Assembly: GCA_964016885.1 (NCBI GenBank)
Contig: OZ024747.1
Coordinates: forward strand, 19,778,001 to 19,842,000
Direction: 5' to 3'
Origin: Eledone cirrhosa
Taxonomy: Eukaryota
DNA: 64,000 nucleotides
The notes under the pieces were generated by a model. That model made no database searches, was not told where the DNA came from, and worked only from the letters and a program-made list of their open reading frames with translations. Below, piece after piece: positions 1,133 to 64,000 of the stretch. Position numbers and translations under genes: made by a program. Numbering within the stretch: the first letter of the stretch is position 1; the number at the start of each line of letters is the position of its first letter.

Positions 1133-4100
1133 TTTTCTCTTTCTCTTAATTTTGAGTATATTTTTTGACCGGCCACCATCCTGGTGGCAAGGTTGTAAAA
1201 GAAAAGAAATTGTCATCCCTTGAATCGCAAGAATGTTTTGCAAATTTTGAAGGTGCCAGCTATCGCAGCCATTTGTAGACTATGAATTAGGGAGCTACGC
1301 TTTTTGTCCGCAAATCCAAGTTCAGTCATACTTTGGTCCAAGCGGGTTGATATATAACCCGTAGCACCAATAATGATGGGTATGAAGCTAAAGGTGTATC
1401 TTGGATACTGGATTTGTAAACTCCTCATCAATGGTCCGTAGATGTCCTCCTTCTCCTGTATTTTTCTGACAACGTTTACATCAAGTGGGCAGCTGATCTC
1501 CACAACAGAACACGTTTTCAATGTGTGGTCCCAAACTACAATATCAGGCCGGTTGTGCTTTAATTTGGTGGCAGTTTTTATTTTCAGGTTCCACCAGTAT
1601 TCCTTAGTGCCATCTGTCTCAATATATTCTTCCTCGTTTGTTGTTGATTTTGTTTTCCGAAGTGCGTTCCAGATGGTTCTAGCTATCCCATCGTGTCTCA
1701 TGGGGAGGTAGTAGCGAGATGACATTCTTTCGCAGCTGGCAACAATGTGGCTTACATTCTCGATCTTTGTTTTACATAGCCTACATTTATTGTCAGCTGC
1801 TGGCCCTCCTCTTTTGTGCAGCAGATATTTGGTAGGGAGTTCTTGTTCCTGTATTGCATAGAGATATCCCTCAAGGTGTGATGTCATAAACTTGTCGGAA
1901 CTCCATGCCAGGCTTTTTGAGTGGTTTATCCCCTCTATGGTCTGTGTTTTACGCCTCAAGTATCCATGCACAACTTTTTCTGTAAATTGGTCAATTTTTT
2001 TTTCTTGTTTGAACATTGAATAGGATCTTCCGATTTCTCTGGGTGAGAGATTTATATCGGGCTTTATTCCATATCTCTCCTCCAGATCAGTCGCTATTCT
2101 AATGATATTTCTTTTTTCATGGTCATAAACCTGGGCAAGATGGTTGCCAACCTTTTTCCTCTGTTGAAGGTGTTGCTTCTGTGTCACTATCCAGGTCTCA
2201 TATGTTGTTAATATTGATTTTAGACCCCGGCCACCTTCCTTGCGTGAGAAGTATAGCCTATCCACATCACCATTGATGTTAAAGTTCCCAGTAACACTGA
2301 GAAGTTTTCGAGTTCTAACATCCATCTCACTTAGTTCTTGCAATGACCAGTTCAGTAGGCCAAATGTTGGCGTTAGAATTGGCACAGCATAAGTATTGTG
2401 GGCAATGTATTTGTTGTATGCTGACAGTTCTGATGACCATATTTTCTTTACTCTTCTGAGGTATTCAGTTCTGGTTCTCTCCTTATTTATGGGTCCATCA
2501 TATCTGACATTCTCATCCTGTCCAAGATATCTGTAGTTGTCACCTGACTGCAGAGGTTGTATTGTCAGGCCGTTCATCTCTAGATTTCTAGAGGAGGGCA
2601 CAACTCTTCCACGTTTTACTGCCAAATATGCACATTTGGACTCACCAAATTTCATTTTGATGTCGGTTGAAAATTGTGTAATGAGGTCCAATTGTTTCTT
2701 GATGTCATTGATATTTGGCCCATACAACTTCAGGTCATCAACAAAGAAAAGATGGGAGATACTTCTGGTCCCACTTCTTTGTCGACCTTGTTTCCTGAGT
2801 AGGTAAGATAGTGGATTCAGTGAGAGAACGAAGAGTAGCACTGACAAGCTATCACCCTGAAAGATGCCCTTCTGGTAATGTATCTTATCAGTCTTAACCT
2901 GCTCCTTCTCACCTCTAAGGATCAAACTGGTGTACAAGTTCTTGGTCAGGCGTTCAACAGCAGCTACCAATGGTTGTGGGACTTTAGCTAACTGTAAAGC
3001 CTTAACAATCCACCCATGAGGTACACTATCAAATGCTTTTTGATAGTCCAGCCACACGACAGTCATGTTTCTGCGATTCTTTGTTGTTTTTTCCTGAATC
3101 ATTTTGTTAGTTAGTAGGTGATCTATGCAACCCCACACCTCCCTCTTTCCACCAGCTTGCTCAGGTGTTATGATGTTGTTGGTAGCACAGTGATCCTGTA
3201 AGAACAGGTTAAGGCACCCAGTATATAATTTATACATGATGTTTTGGCAGGCAATTGGGCGGTAATTTTTAGCAAGGGTGGTTTGGCTATTTTGGGGAAT
3301 GAGGAGAGTAGAGGCAGTTGATAACCATCTGGGCAGTTCTTGTGTGCCCTTAATGGTTTCTGTAAACAGCCGTATGAGATCTTGCCGATAGAAAGTGAAA
3401 TTCTTCAACCAGTATCCTGTAATGAGGTCTGGGCCTGGCGATTTCCTATTCGACATTTTCTGTAGAGCTGTTTCCAGTATTGACCCATCTATGTCATATT
3501 GTTTTGTCTGGACATGTTGGCAGTAGTCCTGTTCCAGTTCTTTTAGCCAATTAGCTTGTCTGTTGAATCCGTCATCCGTTTCCCATACAGATCTCCAGTA
3601 GCTCTCAACCTGTTCTTTTGAAGGGGTGTCATTTACAGAGATTGAGCTTTTGCCACCGAAGCTGCGATAAACTGATTTAGGATCTCTGGCAAACAATCTA
3701 TTTAGCACTTGTCGTTTATGTGCTGTTGACTTATATTTTAGTCTTTCTGTTGTAGCTGTGAGTTGTTGTTTCAACTGGTGTAATTTGGAGTTCAAAGTTT
3801 TAAATTTTGTATCTCCAAATCTTCTCTCTAACTTTTTCTTTAGGTCTTCCTGGTGTTGTGTGAAGTTGCTCTCTATGTTGCATTTCATAACGACTGCGAT
3901 GTGTGAGATACTTCGTCTCAGGGACAAAATTTTGGTTTTTAAATTTCGCATCCACGCTGGTTCAGGCTTTCTGTTTGTATCTTGATTGCGTGGTTTTAGA
4001 TGTGTGTTATATGCTAGCAATGTGACAGCTGAATCATATAACAAAACATTAAGCGTTTCAAATGTCGTTTCTACACCTTTAGATCGTATAGCCTTCAGAT

Positions 4101-4158
4101 AATTGCCAGCTATTTCGTTCACCGCTTCCAATTCCAATTTAGTGGGTTCTTTACTGAC
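1133..4158 (-). mobile_element. 5'-truncated R4/Dong-like non-LTR retrotransposon (RT + RLE) inserted in a (TACA)n microsatellite (unit A)
   Basis: Flanked by (TACA)n at ~1098-1132 and ~4159-4257. An ~80-nt 3' UTR ends in a purine-rich tract directly followed by TACA repeats. Homologous coding sequence begins abruptly at the upstream repeat and lacks the N-terminal Myb-like region seen in the 31.8-35.7 kb copy. Confidence 0.92.
1213..4158 (-). CDS. Reverse transcriptase + CCHC zinc knuckle + PD-(D/E)xK restriction-like endonuclease, uninterrupted ~980 codons (track ORF extends to 4290 through the repeat)
   Basis: RT motifs KSPGPD, NYRPIAC, EQAG, WLDYQKAFDSVPH, GIFQGDSLS, FVDD and YRYLG. C-terminal CRLC-x8-H-x4-C, RHD, RPD and EISCP motifs are typical of RLE non-LTR elements. 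Confidence 0.93.
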   Translation of the reverse strand, partial: VSKEPTKLELEAVNEIAGNYLKAIRSKGVETTFETLNVLLYDSAVTLLAYNTHLKPRNQDTNRKPEPAWMRNLKTKILSLRRSISHIAVVMKCNIESNFTQHQEDLKKKLERRFGDTKFKTLNSKLHQLKQQLTATTERLKYKSTAHKRQVLNRLFARDPKSVYRSFGGKSSISVNDTPSKEQVESYWRSVWETDDGFNRQANWLKELEQDYCQHVQTKQYDIDGSILETALQKMSNRKSPGPDLITGYWLKNFTFYRQDLIRLFTETIKGTQELPRWLSTASTLLIPQNSQTTLAKNYRPIACQNIMYKLYTGCLNLFLQDHCATNNIITPEQAGGKREVWGCIDHLLTNKMIQEKTTKNRRNMTVVWLDYQKAFDSVPHGWIVKALQLAKVPQPLVAAVERLTKNLYTSLILRGEKEQVKTDKIHYQKGIFQGDSLSVLLFVLSLNPLSYLLRKQGRQRSGTRSISHLFFVDDLKLYGPNINDIKKQLDLITQFSTDIKMKFGESKCAYLAVKRGRVVPSSRNLEMNGLTIQPLQSGDNYRYLGQDENVRYDGPINKERTRTEYLRRVKKIWSSELSAYNKYIAHNTYAVPILTPTFGLLNWSLQELSEMDVRTRKLLSVTGNFNINGDVDRLYFSRKEGGRGLKSILTTYETWIVTQKQHLQQRKKVGNHLAQVYDHEKRNIIRIATDLEERYGIKPDINLSPREIGRSYSMFKQEKKIDQFTEKVVHGYLRRKTQTIEGINHSKSLAWSSDKFMTSHLEGYLYAIQEQELPTKYLLHKRGGPAADNKCRLCKTKIENVSHIVASCERMSSRYYLPMRHDGIARTIWNALRKTKSTTNEEEYIETDGTKEYWWNLKIKTATKLKHNRPDIVVWDHTLKTCSVVEISCPLDVNVVRKIQEKEDIYGPLMRSLQIQYPRYTFSFIPIIIGATGYISTRLDQSMTELGFADKKRSSLIHSLQMAAIAGTFKICKTFLRFKG

Positions 4159-4227
4159 GTATGTATGCATGTATGTATGTATGTATGTATGTATGTATGT
4201 ATGTATGTATGTATGTATGTATGTATG

Positions 4228-4257
<30 letters not shown>

Positions 4258-4258
<1 letters not shown>

Positions 4259-4772
4259 GGTTTCTTGGTGAGGAGGGTGACTTTGGACATCCTGCAGGAC
4301 TAAAAACAAAACCTGTCAAGGGGCAAAGGAGCTCTTAAGTGTCAATGGCCATCCAAAATCACCTTGAGAGATGATCCCTTAGCCTTTATCAAGGCAGAAT
4401 TCTAGGAGAAGGAAATCTCTGATATAACATCTGCAACCCTGATGGTATCCAATGATGTTGACTTGTTCTTCTTTTTGGTAAATATCATCTTGGTTAAGAG
4501 TGTGGGACTTTCTTTGTGCAGTGCCTTTGCTCACTATAAAAGCTTCACGGCACAGGCATTGCTTTATATCTGGAGATCTCTCTGCACTTGTCATCACATG
4601 GTATCATGGGCCAAGCACTATGTGTCAATAATTGTCACAAGTGTAGTGTTTGTACCAGAGTTTTCAAGTCGCTGGCTGGACTAAAAAGTAACACTCGTTC
4701 AGCCCATCGGTAGGGGTTCTCCTACATGGATATAAAGTAGTGGCCGTACTCGAAAACGAGTTGGCAGCCACC
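4258..4772 (-). mobile_element. ~515-bp non-coding insert between (TACA)n tracts (unit B); putative non-autonomous SINE/SIDE-like element
   Basis: Sharp boundaries at TACA repeats on both sides and no RT homology. Hairpins at the presumed 5' end (GTGGCTG..ACTCG-TTTT-CGAGT..CGGCCAC; CCAT-GTAGG..CCTAC-CG-ATGG). Strand is inferred from neighbouring units. Confidence 0.45.
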
Positions 4773-10447: not shown

Positions 10448-10645
10448 ATATGTGTGTGTGAAGGTTTATGTTTTGGGTTTGTTTATGACCCGTAATATAA
10501 GGGTTTTGTCAAAAATTCGCAGAGAAAAATATTTATTTGTTCGATTAAATCTCTTCAAGTAGATGCCACATCATGGTCGAAAGCTAATGAATGAAACAGC
10601 TAAAAGAAATAGACAAGATGCAAAATTATCTCCACATATCACACT

Positions 10646-11818
10646 ATGTATTTAAATCATTTACAATGGTATAATCCTATCAACATTTATAATTTTGATG
10701 ATTACTATAACGACGCCTTAGCTAGATCCGGCTTTAGGGACAAATTGTATTACACCCAGGGAAATAATGGTCCTAATAGTAGCTCTACCAGTGTTGTTAT
10801 AACACATAATATGGCCATTGGTAATCGAGGTGTCGCGAATGGGAGGGTTCTAAATGCCGGTGGAATGAAACAGCAGGGCACCATTAGTCTAAGTAATAAC
10901 AATAGAGGTGTCGTGAACGGGAGGTTTCTAGATGCCGGTGGAATGAACCAGCAGGGCACCATTAGTCTAAGTAATAGCAATGGTGGGCCTCGCAGCTCCC
11001 CGCATGGACTAGGTGAGCATAGGAACCGTAGAAATAATAATGCTAATAATACTGATGGAAATAGAAAGAATAAAAAGAATAGAAGAAGATTGAATACATA
11101 CTTCAACCCCCCTTTTAATTCTGAAGTGGCTACAAATATTCCTAGGGCCTTCTTCTCTGTGCTAGAACGGAACTTCCCTCCTGGTAATAGGTACCACTCT
11201 ATCCTCAATAAGAATGTTGTTAAACTTTCATATTCTACAACCCAAAATCTAGCCTCTCATCTGGCCATTACTAATAATAAGAAAATAAAGGAAGGCCTGG
11301 ACAACCTAAGCCTAGGGGAAAACACGGTAGTGGATAGAGTGGGCAGTAACACTGGTGGTGATCTTTCTGAGAATAGCATCACCAGAGGTTGTAACTGTAG
11401 AAGGGCTTCGGGCTGCCCCCTGAATGGTTTCTGCCTTGTTAGAAACATAGTTTATGCGTGTGATGTGGTAACTACGGCGTCCACTATGTCCTATATAGGA
11501 TCAACTTCCACCCCCTTTAAGACCAGGTTTAACTCTCATCAATGCACTTTTAGACATAATAAACTGAAGAACTCCACCTCCTTGGCAGCGTACGTCCATA
11601 ATTTAAAAAATGCACGAACACCTTACACACTTACTTGGCGGCAGGTTGCTAAATCCCATCCATATACTCCTCATAGTAGAGTATGCAACCTGTGCCTTGC
11701 CGAATCCCACTCTATTATATTTGCTAAATGCCCTCTACTAAATAGAAAGTCTGAAATTTTTTCCTCTTGCCCCCACCGAATATTAAGCTCTTTCTTCTAC
11801 TTTAAACCTGTTAGCTAG
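10646..11818 (+). CDS. PLE C-terminal linker + zinc-binding region + GIY-YIG endonuclease, no RT core (5'-truncated; first ~15 codons probably foreign)
   Basis: YYNDALARSGF, YFNPPF..V.TNI, CNCR-x4-CPL-x3-C, IVY..YIGST..FKTRFNSH, CNLCLAE and LLNRKSEIFSSCPH match Penelope-like element C-termini. Confidence 0.88.
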   Translation: MYLNHLQWYNPINIYNFDDYYNDALARSGFRDKLYYTQGNNGPNSSSTSVVITHNMAIGNRGVANGRVLNAGGMKQQGTISLSNNNRGVVNGRFLDAGGMNQQGTISLSNSNGGPRSSPHGLGEHRNRRNNNANNTDGNRKNKKNRRRLNTYFNPPFNSEVATNIPRAFFSVLERNFPPGNRYHSILNKNVVKLSYSTTQNLASHLAITNNKKIKEGLDNLSLGENTVVDRVGSNTGGDLSENSITRGCNCRRASGCPLNGFCLVRNIVYACDVVTTASTMSYIGSTSTPFKTRFNSHQCTFRHNKLKNSTSLAAYVHNLKNARTPYTLTWRQVAKSHPYTPHSRVCNLCLAESHSIIFAKCPLLNRKSEIFSSCPHRILSSFFYFKPVS

Positions 11819-20789: not shown

Positions 20790-21730
20790 CTCCCGTCGGA
20801 TTTCGGTATATGATGGGACAGAAGTCTTTGCAGTTCATTTTTATGATTATGTCTTAGATGCCACTTGAATGTAGGCGATGTTTTACAAATGAAGCCGTAT
20901 TTAGTTCAGAGGACAGGATTTCGAACAGAGCAGAATGGAAAGTTTGACTGAATCTTGGTGTTAGATTTAGATCATGTTGAAGGACCAGACGAGATTTTCC
21001 AAACTTTTTTTATACCTTCATGGCAGACTGTCCTCCATTTTGCTCGGTCAGCAGCTAGGGCTTCACTAGAAGTAAGAAGTATGTTCACAATTTAAGATTG
21101 TACTTCAGTTTATTCGTGTAGTGGTTTGCCTATATTACGTGCACCATTATGAAGTTATTGTATATAAACAGTACATTGGCTGTGCGATCTTCAGTCATCC
21201 GTAGGATATGTTTAGCCCATCTAAATTGGGATTGCATCAGAAATGACTCAATTCAAATGATGTTGTACACCGTGAACAGATCGGTATTGGAGATACTGTC
21301 AGAAAGTGCATAAACACTGAGCGAAGAAAATATATGTGGATGCAATAAAGTATCCATGACTCCGAGTCTTATAAGAGTTTCTCCCTATCCTTGCACGATA
21401 AACTGCAACTTTTGTCTTCAGACATTTGCCTTTGACATACCATAGACGCTGATTCAGTTTGCTTAAAGCGTCATTTGCTATGGAGACACATCATCCAGAG
21501 ATGCAGAGGCGATCACATTTCTGCCAAGGTAAGTATACGAGTTCACATACCAGATACTTGCCATCAACAATGACGGAAACAAGATGATGCTCGTGCCCCA
21601 GCCGTCTCTGCATAACATCTACTTGTCTGCGGGGGGGGGGGGGCTTTTTTTGATACACCACCTCAGTCTTCTTGACAGTGATTATTGAAATACTTGGCGG
21701 CCAACGTTGTCTTATTTCCTTACAATTCAA
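20790..21730 (-). mobile_element. Decayed RTE-clade (BovB-like) LINE 3' fragment
   Basis: ITVKKTEVVYQ, IANDALSKLNQRLW, KTKVAVYR and QSQFRWAKHILRM remnants across frames. Confidence 0.7.
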
Positions 21731-22678
21731 TATTACGATTAATATAAATAATCATTTCCAACACCCACACAAATATTCATGCTTTCTTTGTCATAATAAA
21801 ATCTGTTTTATAGAGTGAAATCATTATTTATTCATCATCAGATGAACGAAAACATTTTAAAATAATCGTACAGCAAAAAAAAAAAAAAAAAATTTAGATA
21901 TGATAATAATCATAGTTGCAATATAACATTTAACAAAACAGACAAAACATCCAGTTTACAATATATGACAACATATGTAAAATATCTATTTTTTTAATAG
22001 CTACTTTTTGTCTTTCTCTCTGCCTTCTATAATATACCATTATATCTGTATACATGGTACATTTTTACAAGATCACCTATCTCGAGTTTGTGAAGAAATA
22101 CATTTTCTCGTATGTTTGTGTGTTTGCAGTGACTGTGACCTCCAGACCTGTTGGAAATAAATTATTTTAGAAATATTGGAGAAGGAAGCGGTGAACCTCT
22201 CCGAGGCTTCTCACACTCGGACATACCATTACAATCACAGCTACCTCTTCGTGGTGGAAATTTTGGCCTACGTTTTTTACTGTTTTGAAAGAATCTGACA
22301 TTGAAACCGGACGGAAATTATTCGTCGTCTAGTTACATAGTTGCGGTGCTAACCTTAACTCTGACCCTTACTCTAATCCTTAAACCTAACAGTAGCCGTA
22401 AAATTAACCTTGACTAACATTAACCCGAGAATGGAAAAAACGCACCTGTAAACTAGGTAAGATATTTTCCCTTGAAATACGAGAAAGGTGTCCTTGTAAT
22501 AAAATCTCCGAGCGTGGGAAACTCCGCGGTTCGATCAACAACCTTGGCTATATTCAAAACAAACTATGGAGGTTAAATTCATCGAAAATATGAAAGAAAC
22601 AGAGGAAAAAAATATGTGTACAGTAACTACGACTGATATACTTGTTCAAATAAATAAATCTATATATATATATATATA

Positions 22679-22982
22679 GAGGACAGTTTAAGGATTTACA
22701 GAAACCCAAGAAGCTAGATTTACCATCTTTCTAGCGGGTCCGGGTATGCTTTTTACATTCATTTGATTTATTGATTTATTGATTTTTTATCTGAGTGTCC
22801 CGAATCTTCCAGATCGCAATTTTTCGGTCGTATGTTTGATTATAGACTTGTTCTATGTGTGACGGTATTTTAACGATAGTTATAGCTCTGATTTATCTAA
22901 ATTATTGAGCCCTCTGCCGCTCATATCGAATTTTGTTTATCGTGAACTCGTGCGCCGATTTTCCGATACTCGATTATTCAAC
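22679..22982 (+). mobile_element. TA-flanked insert with PLE-like tail motif
   Basis: Bounded by (TA)n; ATTGAGCCCTCT lies ~75 nt before the 3' TA tract. Confidence 0.35.
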
Positions 22983-23000
22983 TATATATATATATATATA

Positions 23001-23204
23001 TTAATAAAAGGAATTCCAACTTTGTCTGATTTACTCGTTTTATTTACAATCCTTTAAAATTATAATGATAATATTATAAAATAGTATGGTAGAATATTAA
23101 ATGTTAAGTGTTAATTGAACAAGTAGTTTCATGCTTTCGCAATCTTCAGGTTCATATTCAGTGGTGACAGTCAATATAATATTCTATACGCAATCATACA
23201 CACC

Positions 23205-23206
<2 letters not shown>
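23001..23206. mobile_element. HHR mini-element copy 2: core (23001-23174) on minus strand, tail (23176-23206) on plus strand
   Basis: The core is the reverse complement of 9573-9747 and the tail matches 9749-9780 directly. The minus-strand HHR at 23116-23154 has an intact CTGAAGA. Confidence 0.8.
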
Positions 23207-23250
<44 letters not shown>

Positions 23251-23252
<2 letters not shown>

Positions 23253-23353
23253 CGAAGGAGATGGGGTAAGGAACCTAACGCACCAGCGTACTCAATACTT
23301 AGGGTAGTAGAGTTGGCAATAGGAAAAGGTATGACCCAGAGGTCATACCTTTT

Positions 23354-23358
<5 letters not shown>
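23251..23358 (-). mobile_element. Fold-back mini-element, short form (18-bp arms)
   Basis: ATAGGAAAAGGTATGACC-caga-GGTCATACCTTTTCCTAT plus the family tail; (TA)n on both sides. Confidence 0.85.
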
Positions 23359-23391
<33 letters not shown>

Positions 23392-23397
23392 CATATA

Positions 23398-23770
23398 GTA
23401 TTATTCCTTTGCTATTATTACTCCAAGAAAAGGCTGCCTAGGAACTTTCTTAAACTGGCCACCCGAATAAGGAAACTTCTTGTTAGGTCTAACAACGCCG
23501 TACGTTAAAACTATCCTCGACAAAGAGTACTCAAAACCCCTAACTGGATTACCTTAAACGATACCTTGTTATCTTTTATATATATATATATACTTTTCAA
23601 CAACTAGTTCGACAGCTTCTTCCAGTCTGGAACTAACTGTTGAAACGGAAAAGTGCAGTCGTCGTGCTCCGAATCTTTATAATATAACCATACTATATTA
23701 TCCCAAGTATCGAGTATTCTGTTGAGTAATGGTCTAACTAGTTTAAAACTGGTTGTTACCTCAGAGGATG
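23398..23770 (+). mobile_element. Two further TA-separated PLE-like termini (23398-23577; 23592-~23770, a diverged relative of the fold-back family)
   Basis: TCCTCGACAAAGAGTACTC and TATCCCAAGTATCGAGTATTCTG tail motifs. Confidence 0.45.
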
Positions 23771-24839
23771 GGAAGAAATTCATAGAACGCTGGTTGACAG
23801 ATGTAGAAAAATTCAGAAGCGCTTGCCTTTCTTCATTCTTTTCCTGGAGGTCTTGAATGTGTTGTTATGTTGTGAAAGAAGCACCACTTTTATTATGTCT
23901 TTCTTTGTGTTATAAGGGAATATACATCTAGATTACACCAGGGGTGAAATCATTGAATATATTATCCAATAAATGCTTCTTGATGTAGTGTTATTAAGTA
24001 TGACATGATGAAAAGTACCTGTTAACTCTAGCAGGATTATTTAACCGGAGGATTCTACAATACAGTAGAAGCTCCCAATTTAGGTTGATGTAGTGTATGT
24101 GTAAATGATGTATGGAAACACAAACATAATTTTCAGAGTGGGCACCTGATTGCTAAGAGTTGAGTTATATTATATTGTGGACTTACAGCAAATCGATTCA
24201 GCAAAGCAATTAGACAAACATAGTTCCTTTCTTGCTAACTCGCTGACTTTTCAAAATGAGAATAATGATATATTGATTTATTATATAAATATTGAACCAC
24301 ACATTTAGTTGTGTATTTCGATGCATTAATATATACATAAAAGCACACACTCCCATACATATGTACTTAAATACAATGCCAAAGCGCAAAACAGCAAACG
24401 ATCGTTAGATAAAAAGAAAAGGAAAAAGAAAAACAATTGACTTAAATAAGTAAATATTTAATTTACGAAAATACAAGAAAATCTCATTAGAAAAAATATA
24501 GAGAAAATTAAGAAAAATATTATCATAATAATCTTTTAGATGTATTTTTAATCAATATGTTTTAAATGAGTTGATCATTCAAAAATAGACTAACCTAGAA
24601 ACACACACGCATACAGAACTACAGGCACTATAGACATAATTGCATACATACATGCGTACATAGTACTTATATACATACACGCACAAGCACACACACACAT
24701 ATATATATTCACACACACATATAGATGAATACAAGCATATATCGCAAATATGGGTTTGTGGTTAAGGAATTTCCTTGACAACCACGTGGTTTCGGTTCAG
24801 ATACTATAGCTAGTGAAGTAGTGACCTCTAGGTCAGGAA

Positions 24840-25880: not shown

Positions 25881-26062
25881 AACAAACAGGGTGTGGTAAC
25901 ATACCAGGTGGACCATAATGCACCAGAGTATTCGATACTTAGGGTAGTAGAGTTGGTAATAGGAAAAGAGTCAGGACCCCGACGGCTGAGCTCCAGCCGT
26001 TTAGGCTCTAGCTGTCAAAACGGCCAGAACTCAGCCGTCGACCATGTTATTCTTCACTCTTT

Positions 26063-26064
<2 letters not shown>
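25881..26064 (-). mobile_element. Fold-back mini-element, diverged copy
   Basis: Family tail CCAGGTGGACCATAATGCACCAGAGTATTCGATACTTAGGGTAGTAGAG plus an imperfect palindrome; (TA)n on both sides. Confidence 0.8.
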
Positions 26065-26473: not shown

Positions 26474-26518
<45 letters not shown>

Positions 26519-26520
<2 letters not shown>

Positions 26521-26721
26521 CGAAGGAAATGTGGTAAGGAACCAGGTGGACCATAACGCACCAAAGTACTCGATACTTGGGGTAGTAGAGTGGGTAATAG
26601 GAACCAGTAAGACCCCGACAGCTGAGCTCAAGCCGTTTCGACGGCTAATTCTGGACCAGAATACTGGACCAGAATTAGCCGTCGAAACGGCTTGAGCTCA
26701 GCTGTCGGGGTCTTACTGGTT

Positions 26722-26726
<5 letters not shown>
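26519..26726 (-). mobile_element. Fold-back mini-element with perfect 58-bp arms
   Basis: 26597-26654 is the reverse complement of 26669-26726; ~78-nt unpaired tail; (TA)n on both sides. Confidence 0.9.
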
Positions 26727-26769
<43 letters not shown>

Positions 26770-30052: not shown

Positions 30053-30054
<2 letters not shown>

Positions 30055-30113
30055 GAAAATATTCAAGACCCCGACGGCAGAGCTCCAGCAGTTTCGACGG
30101 CGGCTATTTCTGG
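30053..30113 (-). mobile_element. Solo inverted arm of the fold-back family
   Basis: GGAAAATATTCAAGACCCCGACGGCAGAGCTCCAGCAGTTTCGACGG..CTATTTCTGG directly after (TA)n. Confidence 0.8.
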
Positions 30114-30127
30114 ACGCATCTAGTGTA

Positions 30128-40948: not shown

Positions 40949-47275
<6,327 letters not shown>

Positions 47276-47731: not shown

Positions 47732-47740
47732 TTATATATA

Positions 47741-47915
47741 TAGGAAAAAGTATGACCCCGACGGCAGAGCTCAAGCCATTGCATAGCCGTCGAAACGGCT
47801 TGAGCTCTACCGTCGAGGTCATACTTTTTCTTATTTATTTCCAACTCTACTACCCTAAGTATTGTGTACTCTGGTGCGTTATGGTCCATCTGGTTCCTTA
47901 CCTCAATTCCTTTGT

Positions 47916-51404: not shown

Positions 51405-51596
51405 GAAAATGTTCAAGATCCCTGCGGCACAGCTCAAGCCGTTTCGACGGCTATTTCTGGTATAGACATAGCCGTCGAAACGGCTTGAGCTCTGCCGTCG
51501 GGGTCTTGAACATTTTCCTATTACCCACTCTACTATTCTAAGTATGGAGTACTCTGGTGCGTTATGGTCCACCTGGTTCCTTACCACACTTCGTTC

Positions 51597-51600
<4 letters not shown>
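51405..51600 (+). mobile_element. Fold-back mini-element with intact 3' half-hammerhead
   Basis: Arms ~51405-51454 / 51468-51517; GAA-ACGGC-ttgagctct-GCCGT-C-GGGGTC; family tail; (TA)n on both sides. Confidence 0.88.
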
Positions 51601-60731: not shown

Positions 60732-60804
60732 GTCCCTGTAGCGCAGGGGATAGCGCGCTGGACTTCTAATCCAGAGGTCGTGGAGTCGAATCATACCAGC
60801 TATG
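60732..60804 (+). pseudogene. tRNA-Arg(UCU) pseudogene or tRNA-derived SINE head
   Basis: D stem GCGC/GCGC and anticodon arm CTGGA-CTTCTAA-TCCAG are intact. The T-loop reads GTCGAAT, and the T stem and acceptor stem are mispaired. Confidence 0.75.
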
Positions 60805-63873: not shown

Positions 63874-63985
63874 GAAAAGCTTCAGGACCGTTTCGACAGG
63901 TAGATCGGTACTCATATTACCCACTCTACTATCCCAAGTATCGAGTACTCTGGTGGGTTAGGCCTAGCTGGTTTTTACCACACCC
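63874..63985 (+). mobile_element. Diverged fold-back family copy (tail plus arm remnant)
   Basis: TATTACCCACTCTACTATCCCAAGTATCGAGTACTCTGGTG..TTACCACAC; CCGTTTCGAC remnant; TA flanks. Confidence 0.75.
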
Positions 63986-64000
63986 TATATGATATACATA

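Follow-up and report, generated by a model that had tools for sequence, protein, structure and literature searches.

The short palindromes found in the window, i.e., the whole 64,000-nucleotide stretch of Eledone cirrhosa DNA analyzed here, are almost certainly short by-products of an autonomous Penelope-like element (PLE). They are the short end of a continuum reaching 14-kb insertions and not a separate mini-element, as had been supposed in an earlier note on this stretch, which described a PLE-dependent mini-element. More specifically, we consider it likely that the palindromes represent the shortest insertions of an intact Hydra-type PLE, primed on both target strands, and that RNA ends are recorded at their centers.

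Palindromic Copies in TA Tracts

The window has a GC content of 34% and abundant TA tracts. All seven copies listed in the earlier note were recovered in a window scan, each adjoining (TA)n or a TA-rich run, together with an eighth, weak tail remnant missing from that list (23692–23743, forward strand; 79% over 52 nt, E = 1.5e-7). The copy at 26520–26726 lies between TA runs at 26482–26519 and 26724–26765, the left and right halves of its (TA)n target. Its tailed (B) arm (26520–26656, reverse strand) corresponds to positions 3407–3543 of the parent unit described below, i.e., to the last 137 nt of that unit, of which 135 are identical, and ends 1 nt before an Inr-like A. The outer part of this arm (26520–26599, reverse strand) is the 80-nt PLE tail (unit 3464–3543), with its outer end at site B (CGT/TAT in the tandem RNA, the slash marking the boundary). 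A junction filler at 26657–26668, a local duplication of arm-end sequence of the end-joining type, separates it from the tail-less (A) arm (26669–26723, forward strand; unit 3409–3463), which ends at site A (TTCC/TAT). The hammerhead 3' half, as assigned from the predicted parent fold, occupies 26673–26711 on the forward strand and comprises the 3' strand of stem II (26673–26683), GAAA (26684–26687), stem III, GUC with the predicted cut after 26706, and the 3' strand of stem I (26707–26711).

The remaining copies were an older copy of the cut-site class (23252–23358; tailed arm on the left, tail-less arm on the right, 18-bp arms), in which both arms end at or before the predicted ribozyme cut; an old, decayed two-armed copy with the tail on the left (25881–26064); a tail-less arm alone, followed by unrelated sequence (30053–30115, reverse strand); two two-armed copies with the tail on the right (47740–47915 and 51405–51598); and an old, decayed copy with the tail on the right (63874–63992).

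Most of the structural description in the earlier note was borne out. Its complete copies, made of a tail plus a palindrome, do have an 80-nt tail and two arms, but the copies at 30053 and 63874 are one-armed or decayed. The fixed outer end that it gave to the palindrome was found in the well-kept copies, where the tail-less arm ends at TTCC/TAT. The within-copy match of up to 58 bp was confirmed as a perfect arm pair (26597–26654 and 26669–26726) in the copy at 26520–26726, for which predicted RNA folding gave −146.3 kcal/mol (z = −19.6), a value equaled by 0 of 200 shuffles. As claimed, GAAA, stem III, GUC, and the 3' strand of stem I are present in every window copy, and the hammerhead 5' core is missing from all of them. 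The placement of the palindrome center at stem II was correct in part: some centers fall inside the stem II loop, but others lie at the cut site, and the left-hand GACGGCTA is merely the reverse complement of the right arm; the 5' strand of stem II is a different sequence, CGGCTATTT in the parent. The proposed check on the distribution of centers showed that they vary in position.

Several other features were observed in the window. A non-LTR retrotransposon with a long ORF (1216–4299, reverse strand) had matches to RVT_1 (E = 1.3e-23) and zf-RVT, and a (TATG)n tract interrupts it near its start. A segment of ~2,075 nt is present in three tandem occurrences at 42137–47173 (pattern at 42137, 44212, and 46289), and a tRNA-like sequence at 60732–60804 on the forward strand (Rfam, 39.6 bits, several mispairs) is either a pseudogene or a SINE head. 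The 3' end of a different repeat (22990–23200, reverse strand), with a canonical CTGAAGA...GAAA hammerhead-like core near 23149, adjoins the copy at 23252; the same family occurs in loci L047 and L071.

In the 3.0-Gb genome, a 31-mer from the arm had 44,855 exact matches, vs. 0 for the reversed control. In 854 kb chosen blind to the element 44 clusters were counted, 26 of these in 600 kb across many contigs, and scaling from the 600-kb sample gave a rough figure of ~1.3 × 10^5 insertions. The insertion samples consisted of the first places on one contig from pattern-anchored lists and are biased toward a long anchored arm. Opposite-strand joints at the same places were also present in contigs of the DNA runs X2 and X5, indicating that the hairpins are not restricted to this assembly (although X2 may come from the same sample).

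The Parent Element

The linked RT/GIY-YIG ORF that had been anticipated was found in a parent element, and the link to PLEs holds. The sequence 5' of the arm gave 2,889 matches, and in the 29 loci read it led into a 3' UTR of 700–1,100 nt and then a GIY-YIG ORF. Intact copies exist: of the 106 matches scored, many have open frames of at least 784 aa. At one locus, units of 3,542–3,543 bp that are 99.8–100% identical are repeated in tandem. In each unit, the 719-aa RT-EN ORF and a long 3' UTR precede the whole predicted hammerhead fold, which is followed by site A and, across the 80-nt tail, by site B; the next ORF comes thereafter. Sites A (3463) and B (3543) are internal in the tandem, and TAT comes next after each, which matches the (TA)n target. 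TATAT followed site B in 48 of 51 ends; at site A, once the ends reading on into the tail are set aside, it did so in 51 of 54. A tandem or partial-tandem pLTR structure with an inverted 5'-truncated copy is also present in the element.

The structure model of the 719-aa ORF (pLDDT 92) had telomerase TERT as its best Foldseek match (E = 5.4e-8), and the ORF contains YRDD (RT) and YIG..R..H motifs. Its GIY-YIG match in Pfam was weak (E = 0.069, below the cut-off); the whole ORF gave no match against Pfam, a sequence search of the PDB likewise gave no name, and no named reference proteins were among the ORF matches in the homologue search. Hydra-clade RWR and DKT were found (R in 94, W in 92, and K in 67, and D in 92, K in 94, and T in 89 of 94 aligned relatives), as were the Hydra-clade motifs CNCPDRSIC (CxCX5C linker), CNLC (CxxC), and CKH (CxH), whose cysteines are kept in 93–94 of the 94 relatives. 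No CCHH was seen in the ORF by eye. Judged by its sequence, the parent is an EN+ Penelope-like element with Hydra-clade motifs, an assignment based on motifs rather than on a tree with reference Hydra proteins.

Within the tandem locus, the frame at L131:5078–8620 (unit 3435–93 across the tandem junction) is open for 65 codons 5' of the first ATG, extends into stem III of the ribozyme, and measures 784 aa from stop to stop. At the head-to-head junction of this locus (L133; L131–133 block, 21170–24741), a 55-nt ORF segment (unit 1617–1674) is repeated ~65 times, which resembles reiterative, telomerase-style copying or may reflect later slippage. The window also holds the 3' part of a second PLE ORF (10613–11816, forward strand), 40% identical to the parent over 239 aa; it has a Gly/Asn-rich insert and shares the CxCX5C, CxxC, and CxH motifs with the parent.

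The Predicted Hammerhead Fold

The arm is the 3' half of what sequence predicts to be a type I hammerhead fold. In the parent, this predicted fold consists of stem I (ACCCC/GGGGU), the core UUGAnAA, stem II with a long loop of 33–35 nt, GAAA, stem III, and GUC. With positions numbered by the hammerhead convention, the type I core layout is complete, including a paired 3-8, G10.1-C11.1, GAAA, NUH (GUC), and stems I–III. The core region had 5,907 matches in the genome. The core read UUGAnAA (U3-A8) in 72 of 81 copies and CUGAGAA in 7 of 81; in a further count, CUGAnAA, in which 3 and 8 cannot pair, made up approximately one-fifth of the cores. All four bases occur at position 7; TGA and A9 are constant, and the ribozyme stems are invariant rather than covarying. 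The fold was not more stable than those of shuffled sequences (z = −0.21 and −1.58), and an Rfam scan of the window and of the parent end returned no hammerhead, so that the ribozyme status rests on the motif layout together with the junction evidence given below.

The parent envisaged in the earlier note, GACCCC-CTGAnGA-GACGGC (GACCCCCTGANGAGACGGC), had 0 matches, the real core being mostly UUGAnAA. A looser search for CTGAnGA gave 38 matches; of these, 30 were read, and all proved to be junction fillers or to be fused to other elements, with no parent among them. In L033, L034, L031, L048, L040, and L056 (around position 1500), an arm is fused to other PLE-like families without a TA spacer, the partners carrying GIY-YIG ORFs in L033 and L034 and canonical hammerhead-like cores in L031, L048, L040, and L056. 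These fusions may be cross-family template jumps or deletions between neighbors in one TA tract and, having been picked by the CTGAnGA pattern, say nothing of frequency. Arms without stem III occur in L227, L230, and L378, the gap lying exactly between two GCCGTC-like direct repeats, by a hairpin skip of the RT or by later slippage.

Arm Plan and Arm Ends

Insertions from 0.1 to 14 kb share a common plan: of two head-to-head arms, one ends at site A and the other at site B, 80 nt beyond it. A script assigned A+B to 115 of 120 short two-armed copies, and after the five exceptions had been read by eye the count was 119 of 120, the sole true exception being one B+B copy. Both outer ends are visible in 10 of the 15 long loci, each of them A+B; the remaining five run beyond the sequence read at the locus or show one arm. 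Of 119 pairs, 103 could be assigned to subfamilies, and the two arms agreed in 97 of these (0.25 expected).

Arm 5' ends were examined in the first 100 positional matches, which yielded 118 arms. Of these arms, 84 stop 11–22 nt 5' of GAAA, 15 stop earlier, none at 23–24 nt, and 19 reach beyond. This edge is formed by an Inr-like TTAGT/TCAGT within the loop of stem II, the A of which lies 18 nt 5' of GAAA. In 81 matched full-length ends this motif reads TTAGT in 72 and TCAGT in 8, and all 81 carry a TATA-like octamer at −29 to −31 (TATTTAAA in 41, TATTTATT in 25); both labels follow the respective consensus sequences. Starts at AGTCC after a letter other than T accounted for 10,886 matches, of which 3 of the first 30 belong to a natural TCAGT subfamily. 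The letter before AGTCC was G over A by 43:10. In several copies, poly(A) tracts follow the cDNA ends at the Inr-like site. A cap-copy signature was not found, the letter past the run-off point being A in 30, G in 12, C in 9, and T in 3 cases. Arm stops had modes at 14 and 17 nt, mostly a few nucleotides short of the Inr A, so that a reading as transcription start needs trimming of the ends. The single RNA run covered (share 0.05) contributed one contig of 200 nt, and starts are not visible in contigs. Read from these DNA junctions, it is fairly likely that the RNA starts at the A of TTAGT or TCAGT. RT from the 5' copies of A and B would then run off after 57 and 137 nt, respectively, leaving miniature copies without the 5' core. 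A reading of TTTAG/TCCAG as a splice acceptor was set aside, as no common upstream exon was seen in 30 loci. In L079, run-off at the Inr-like site and a short A-run are followed in the arm by the antisense of the ORF start, likely through a template jump.

In 180 insertions of the young subfamily, both arms end at or near the predicted GUC cut. Each of the first 50 of this class, read by eye, had one or both arms ending exactly at the cut (both in 31), and in 3 one arm went past it. In 12 of the 31 junctions with both arms at the cut there is only A/T filler, C17 being absent on both sides and an A present on either cDNA; 12 blunt GACCCCGGGGTC junctions are equally explicable as CG-microhomology joins. 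Of the cut-class loci examined, 14 of 15 were A+B. In L369, the 3' product is followed by T28-GT and by the antisense of the 5' product ending exactly at the cut (unit 3447/3446), i.e., a putative jump onto an A-tailed cleavage product, and in L363 both arms end at 3447 around a captured ORF piece. A first tally of arms at the cut vs. one base further (148 vs. 64) was a poor control, since many control matches also end at the cut. Because both arms often stop at this rare end, the same RNA molecule is suggested as template for both. The DNA junctions make it highly probable that the PLE hammerhead cuts in vivo.

Proposed Mechanism and Alternatives

In the mechanism proposed here, the endonuclease would cut both strands of (TA)n, and each DNA end would prime its own reverse transcription on the element RNA, the nicked 3' ends of (TA)n pairing with the TATs at A and B, mostly on the same RNA molecule. 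Two cDNAs, one from A and one from B 80 nt downstream, would then be joined head to head. The shortness of most cDNAs would follow from the position of A and B, which are also found just behind the RNA 5' end, so that RT would never reach the UUGAnAA half; long arms would be primed in the downstream repeat of uncut RNA. A promoter nested inside the ribozyme would mean that the 5' copy in the RNA holds half a ribozyme and cannot self-cut. Read-through RNA with the whole ribozyme would be cut after GUC and its 3' product copied, giving palindromes centered on the cut. The cDNA 3' ends would receive untemplated A's, be trimmed, and be joined bluntly, by microhomology, or with templated fillers. 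The earlier suggestion that the ribozyme guides integration would hold for a minority of insertions, shaped by cutting of the RNA (both arms stop at the cut), but not as regards a hairpin primer. On balance we lean toward the joint reading, in which a pair of proteins copies a single RNA, starting at two fixed sites, the promoter lies inside the ribozyme, and the read-through hammerhead cuts in vivo, with the 3' and even A-tailed 5' products serving as templates.

The earlier note had instead inferred a cDNA that snaps back at stem II, and self-priming has been modeled for PLE palindromes (PMC3846280): a cDNA started at the tail would fold back, at stem II or at its run-off end, copy itself, and stop at A. 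The agreement of arms within copies is what this would produce, although the low arm edit distance (over 38 nt in 120 pairs, mean 1.87 within copies vs. 4.97 between copies) cannot by itself tell dual priming on one RNA from snap-back. Arms also often stop nearly together (within 10 nt in 32 of 62 copies, and in the cut class), and one copy has a rare variant in both arms, a count (1 of 99 pairs with private variants common to both arms, 21 of the 120 pairs being outside it) that is uninformative. However, the stem-II junction had 0 genome matches with two loop variants covered, its context occurring 58 times in the loci read. Of 62 copies, 21 had an A arm reaching further 5' by at least 10 nt and 9 had a B arm doing so; in seven copies the B arm ends inside the tail and has no sequence in common with the A arm, and tail-less arms are kilobases longer in long loci, one of which has an A side of 10.4 kb vs. 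a B arm of 123 nt. A copy-back strand cannot outreach the tailed cDNA, and a copy of a tail-less cDNA cannot gain a tail, so that snap-back does not fit. Runs of A at the ends of both cDNAs (in L008, A15 followed by T16; elsewhere a single A on either arm), the two clear mixed-subfamily pairs (L084 and L275), and the lack of an A+A class point the same way. Overall, snap-back appears very unlikely and is largely ruled out by the asymmetries of the long loci. Since the tail-less arm is often longer and snap-back junctions number zero, the target strands likely prime separately, and we regard such dual priming of reverse transcription by both target strands as very probable.

Perfect palindromes are unstable, and this instability would favor an origin by erosion of long symmetrical palindromes, the piles of 5' ends then being hot spots of deletion or RT stalling rather than RNA ends. 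Microhomology of 1–4 nt at many junctions, the fit of the blunt cut-class junction to CG microhomology, and the position of the Inr-like site, in the 3' strand of a small internal hairpin, would agree with it. Against erosion, the centers are already in place in young copies at 99% identity, untemplated A/T fillers lie exactly at unit 3447 with C17 gone on both sides, and L369 has a poly(T) bridge between exact cleavage products; moreover, the cliff in arm ends is one-sided and at promoter spacing after the TATA-like box, and RT gets past the stronger stems I, III, and II. We consider erosion unlikely. A TA-targeted family of fixed-TIR MITEs, or of non-autonomous elements copying themselves from a palindromic master, would account for the very high copy number of the short forms, and the 30 best matches to a window copy mostly have one common center, by which, however, that set was selected. 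Among 75 unselected copies there were 66 distinct centers, the tail is one-sided, lying outside one arm, the sequence is that of the 3' terminus of an RT-EN element, and the miniature copies are without the TATA-like box. Such a family is extremely unlikely and is refuted by the parent and the diversity of centers, in agreement with the earlier opinion that this is not a fixed-TIR MITE.

Comparison With Known Elements

The tandem and inverted structure, tail, (TA)n target, and hammerhead are features already described for PLEs. Hydra-clade PLEs have this motif set, a (TA)n target, and a hammerhead in the pLTR, with units generally <3 kb and PLE tails of 30–40 bp (Craig et al., 2021; PMC8557442). 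The present element is like them in its single ORF with a C-terminal GIY-YIG, in RW(K/R), DKT, CxCX5C, CxxC, and CxH (CxxC and CxH lying around a conserved E and N in both systems) and no CCHH, and in its (TA)n target, predicted pLTR hammerhead, tandem and inverted insertions, and one-sided tail. It differs from them in its 3.54-kb unit and 80-nt tail, in a U3-A8 core and 33–35-nt stem II loop that depart from the canonical hammerhead, and in its ~10^5 insertions, most of them miniature (PMC8557442).

Dual priming has an in vitro precedent in the protein of the green anole Poseidon PLE, PAc, which both cuts and extends the two strands, beginning at a pair of internal RNA sites that bound the tail (Frangieh et al., 2024; PMC11167929). 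Common to both systems are a pair of internal RT start sites, a hammerhead just 5' of the start sites and, as proposed here, cutting and extension of both strands. PAc belongs to another clade, and its start sites are reported to have no homology to the target, whereas TAT follows both sites here; cleavage is dispensable in vitro with no reads ending at the cut, whereas a minority of arms stop exactly there in the present element; and site choice is not tied to strand, whereas here one arm is A and the other B (PMC11167929).

PLE promoters lie in the pLTR (PMC2377424, PMC3846280). Drosophila virilis Penelope and the Adineta vaga PLEs are also similar in having partial tandems, head-to-head inverted repeats of variable size, a tail on one pLTR, an Inr promoter in the pLTR, and junction microhomology (PMC2377424, PMC3846280), with a putative TATA in the pLTR promoter of A. 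vaga PLEs (PMC3846280). For the latter, self-priming on an antisense template was proposed (PMC3846280), whereas the junctions described here argue for dual priming on sense RNA. The type I fold is common to the present element, PLE hammerheads, and non-LTR retrozymes (PMC4209133, bioRxiv 10.64898/2026.07.22.740005), and covariation of the U3-A8 core was reported in a Schistosoma PLE hammerhead (PMC4209133). Opposite-strand motif pairs 100–700 bp apart have been regarded as probable truncated PLEs (PMC4209133, bioRxiv 10.64898/2026.07.22.740005). Non-LTR retrozymes differ in being tandem with a whole ribozyme per unit and in a minimal stem III, whereas stem III is long here (at least 5 bp) and the miniature copies are inverted, hold half a ribozyme, and appear to be by-products rather than replicons. 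A retrozyme identity was rejected for these copies, which are inverted and without the 5' core, not tandem units with a complete type I hammerhead.

In the open literature searched, no report was found of the A+B pairing rule, of a promoter-like site inside the ribozyme as source of the half-ribozyme miniature copies, or of junctions recording cleavage in vivo.

The origin of inverted insertions and tails in PLEs, and cleavage in vivo, are described as open questions in PMC8557442 and PMC11167929. If the reading presented here is true, the origin of PLE inverted repeats and tails would be decided against self-priming, and the junctions would be evidence from the genome that a PLE hammerhead cuts in vivo. 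With its intact ORF in many near-identical copies, defined target, two start sites, and two probable RNA 5' ends, the family provides a test system at base level. Abundant mini-palindromes flanked by TA in invertebrate genomes are readily classed as MITEs or SINEs but can be by-products of PLEs, and the ~10^5 short perfect hairpins in this genome, when transcribed by host genes, might putatively feed dsRNA pathways.
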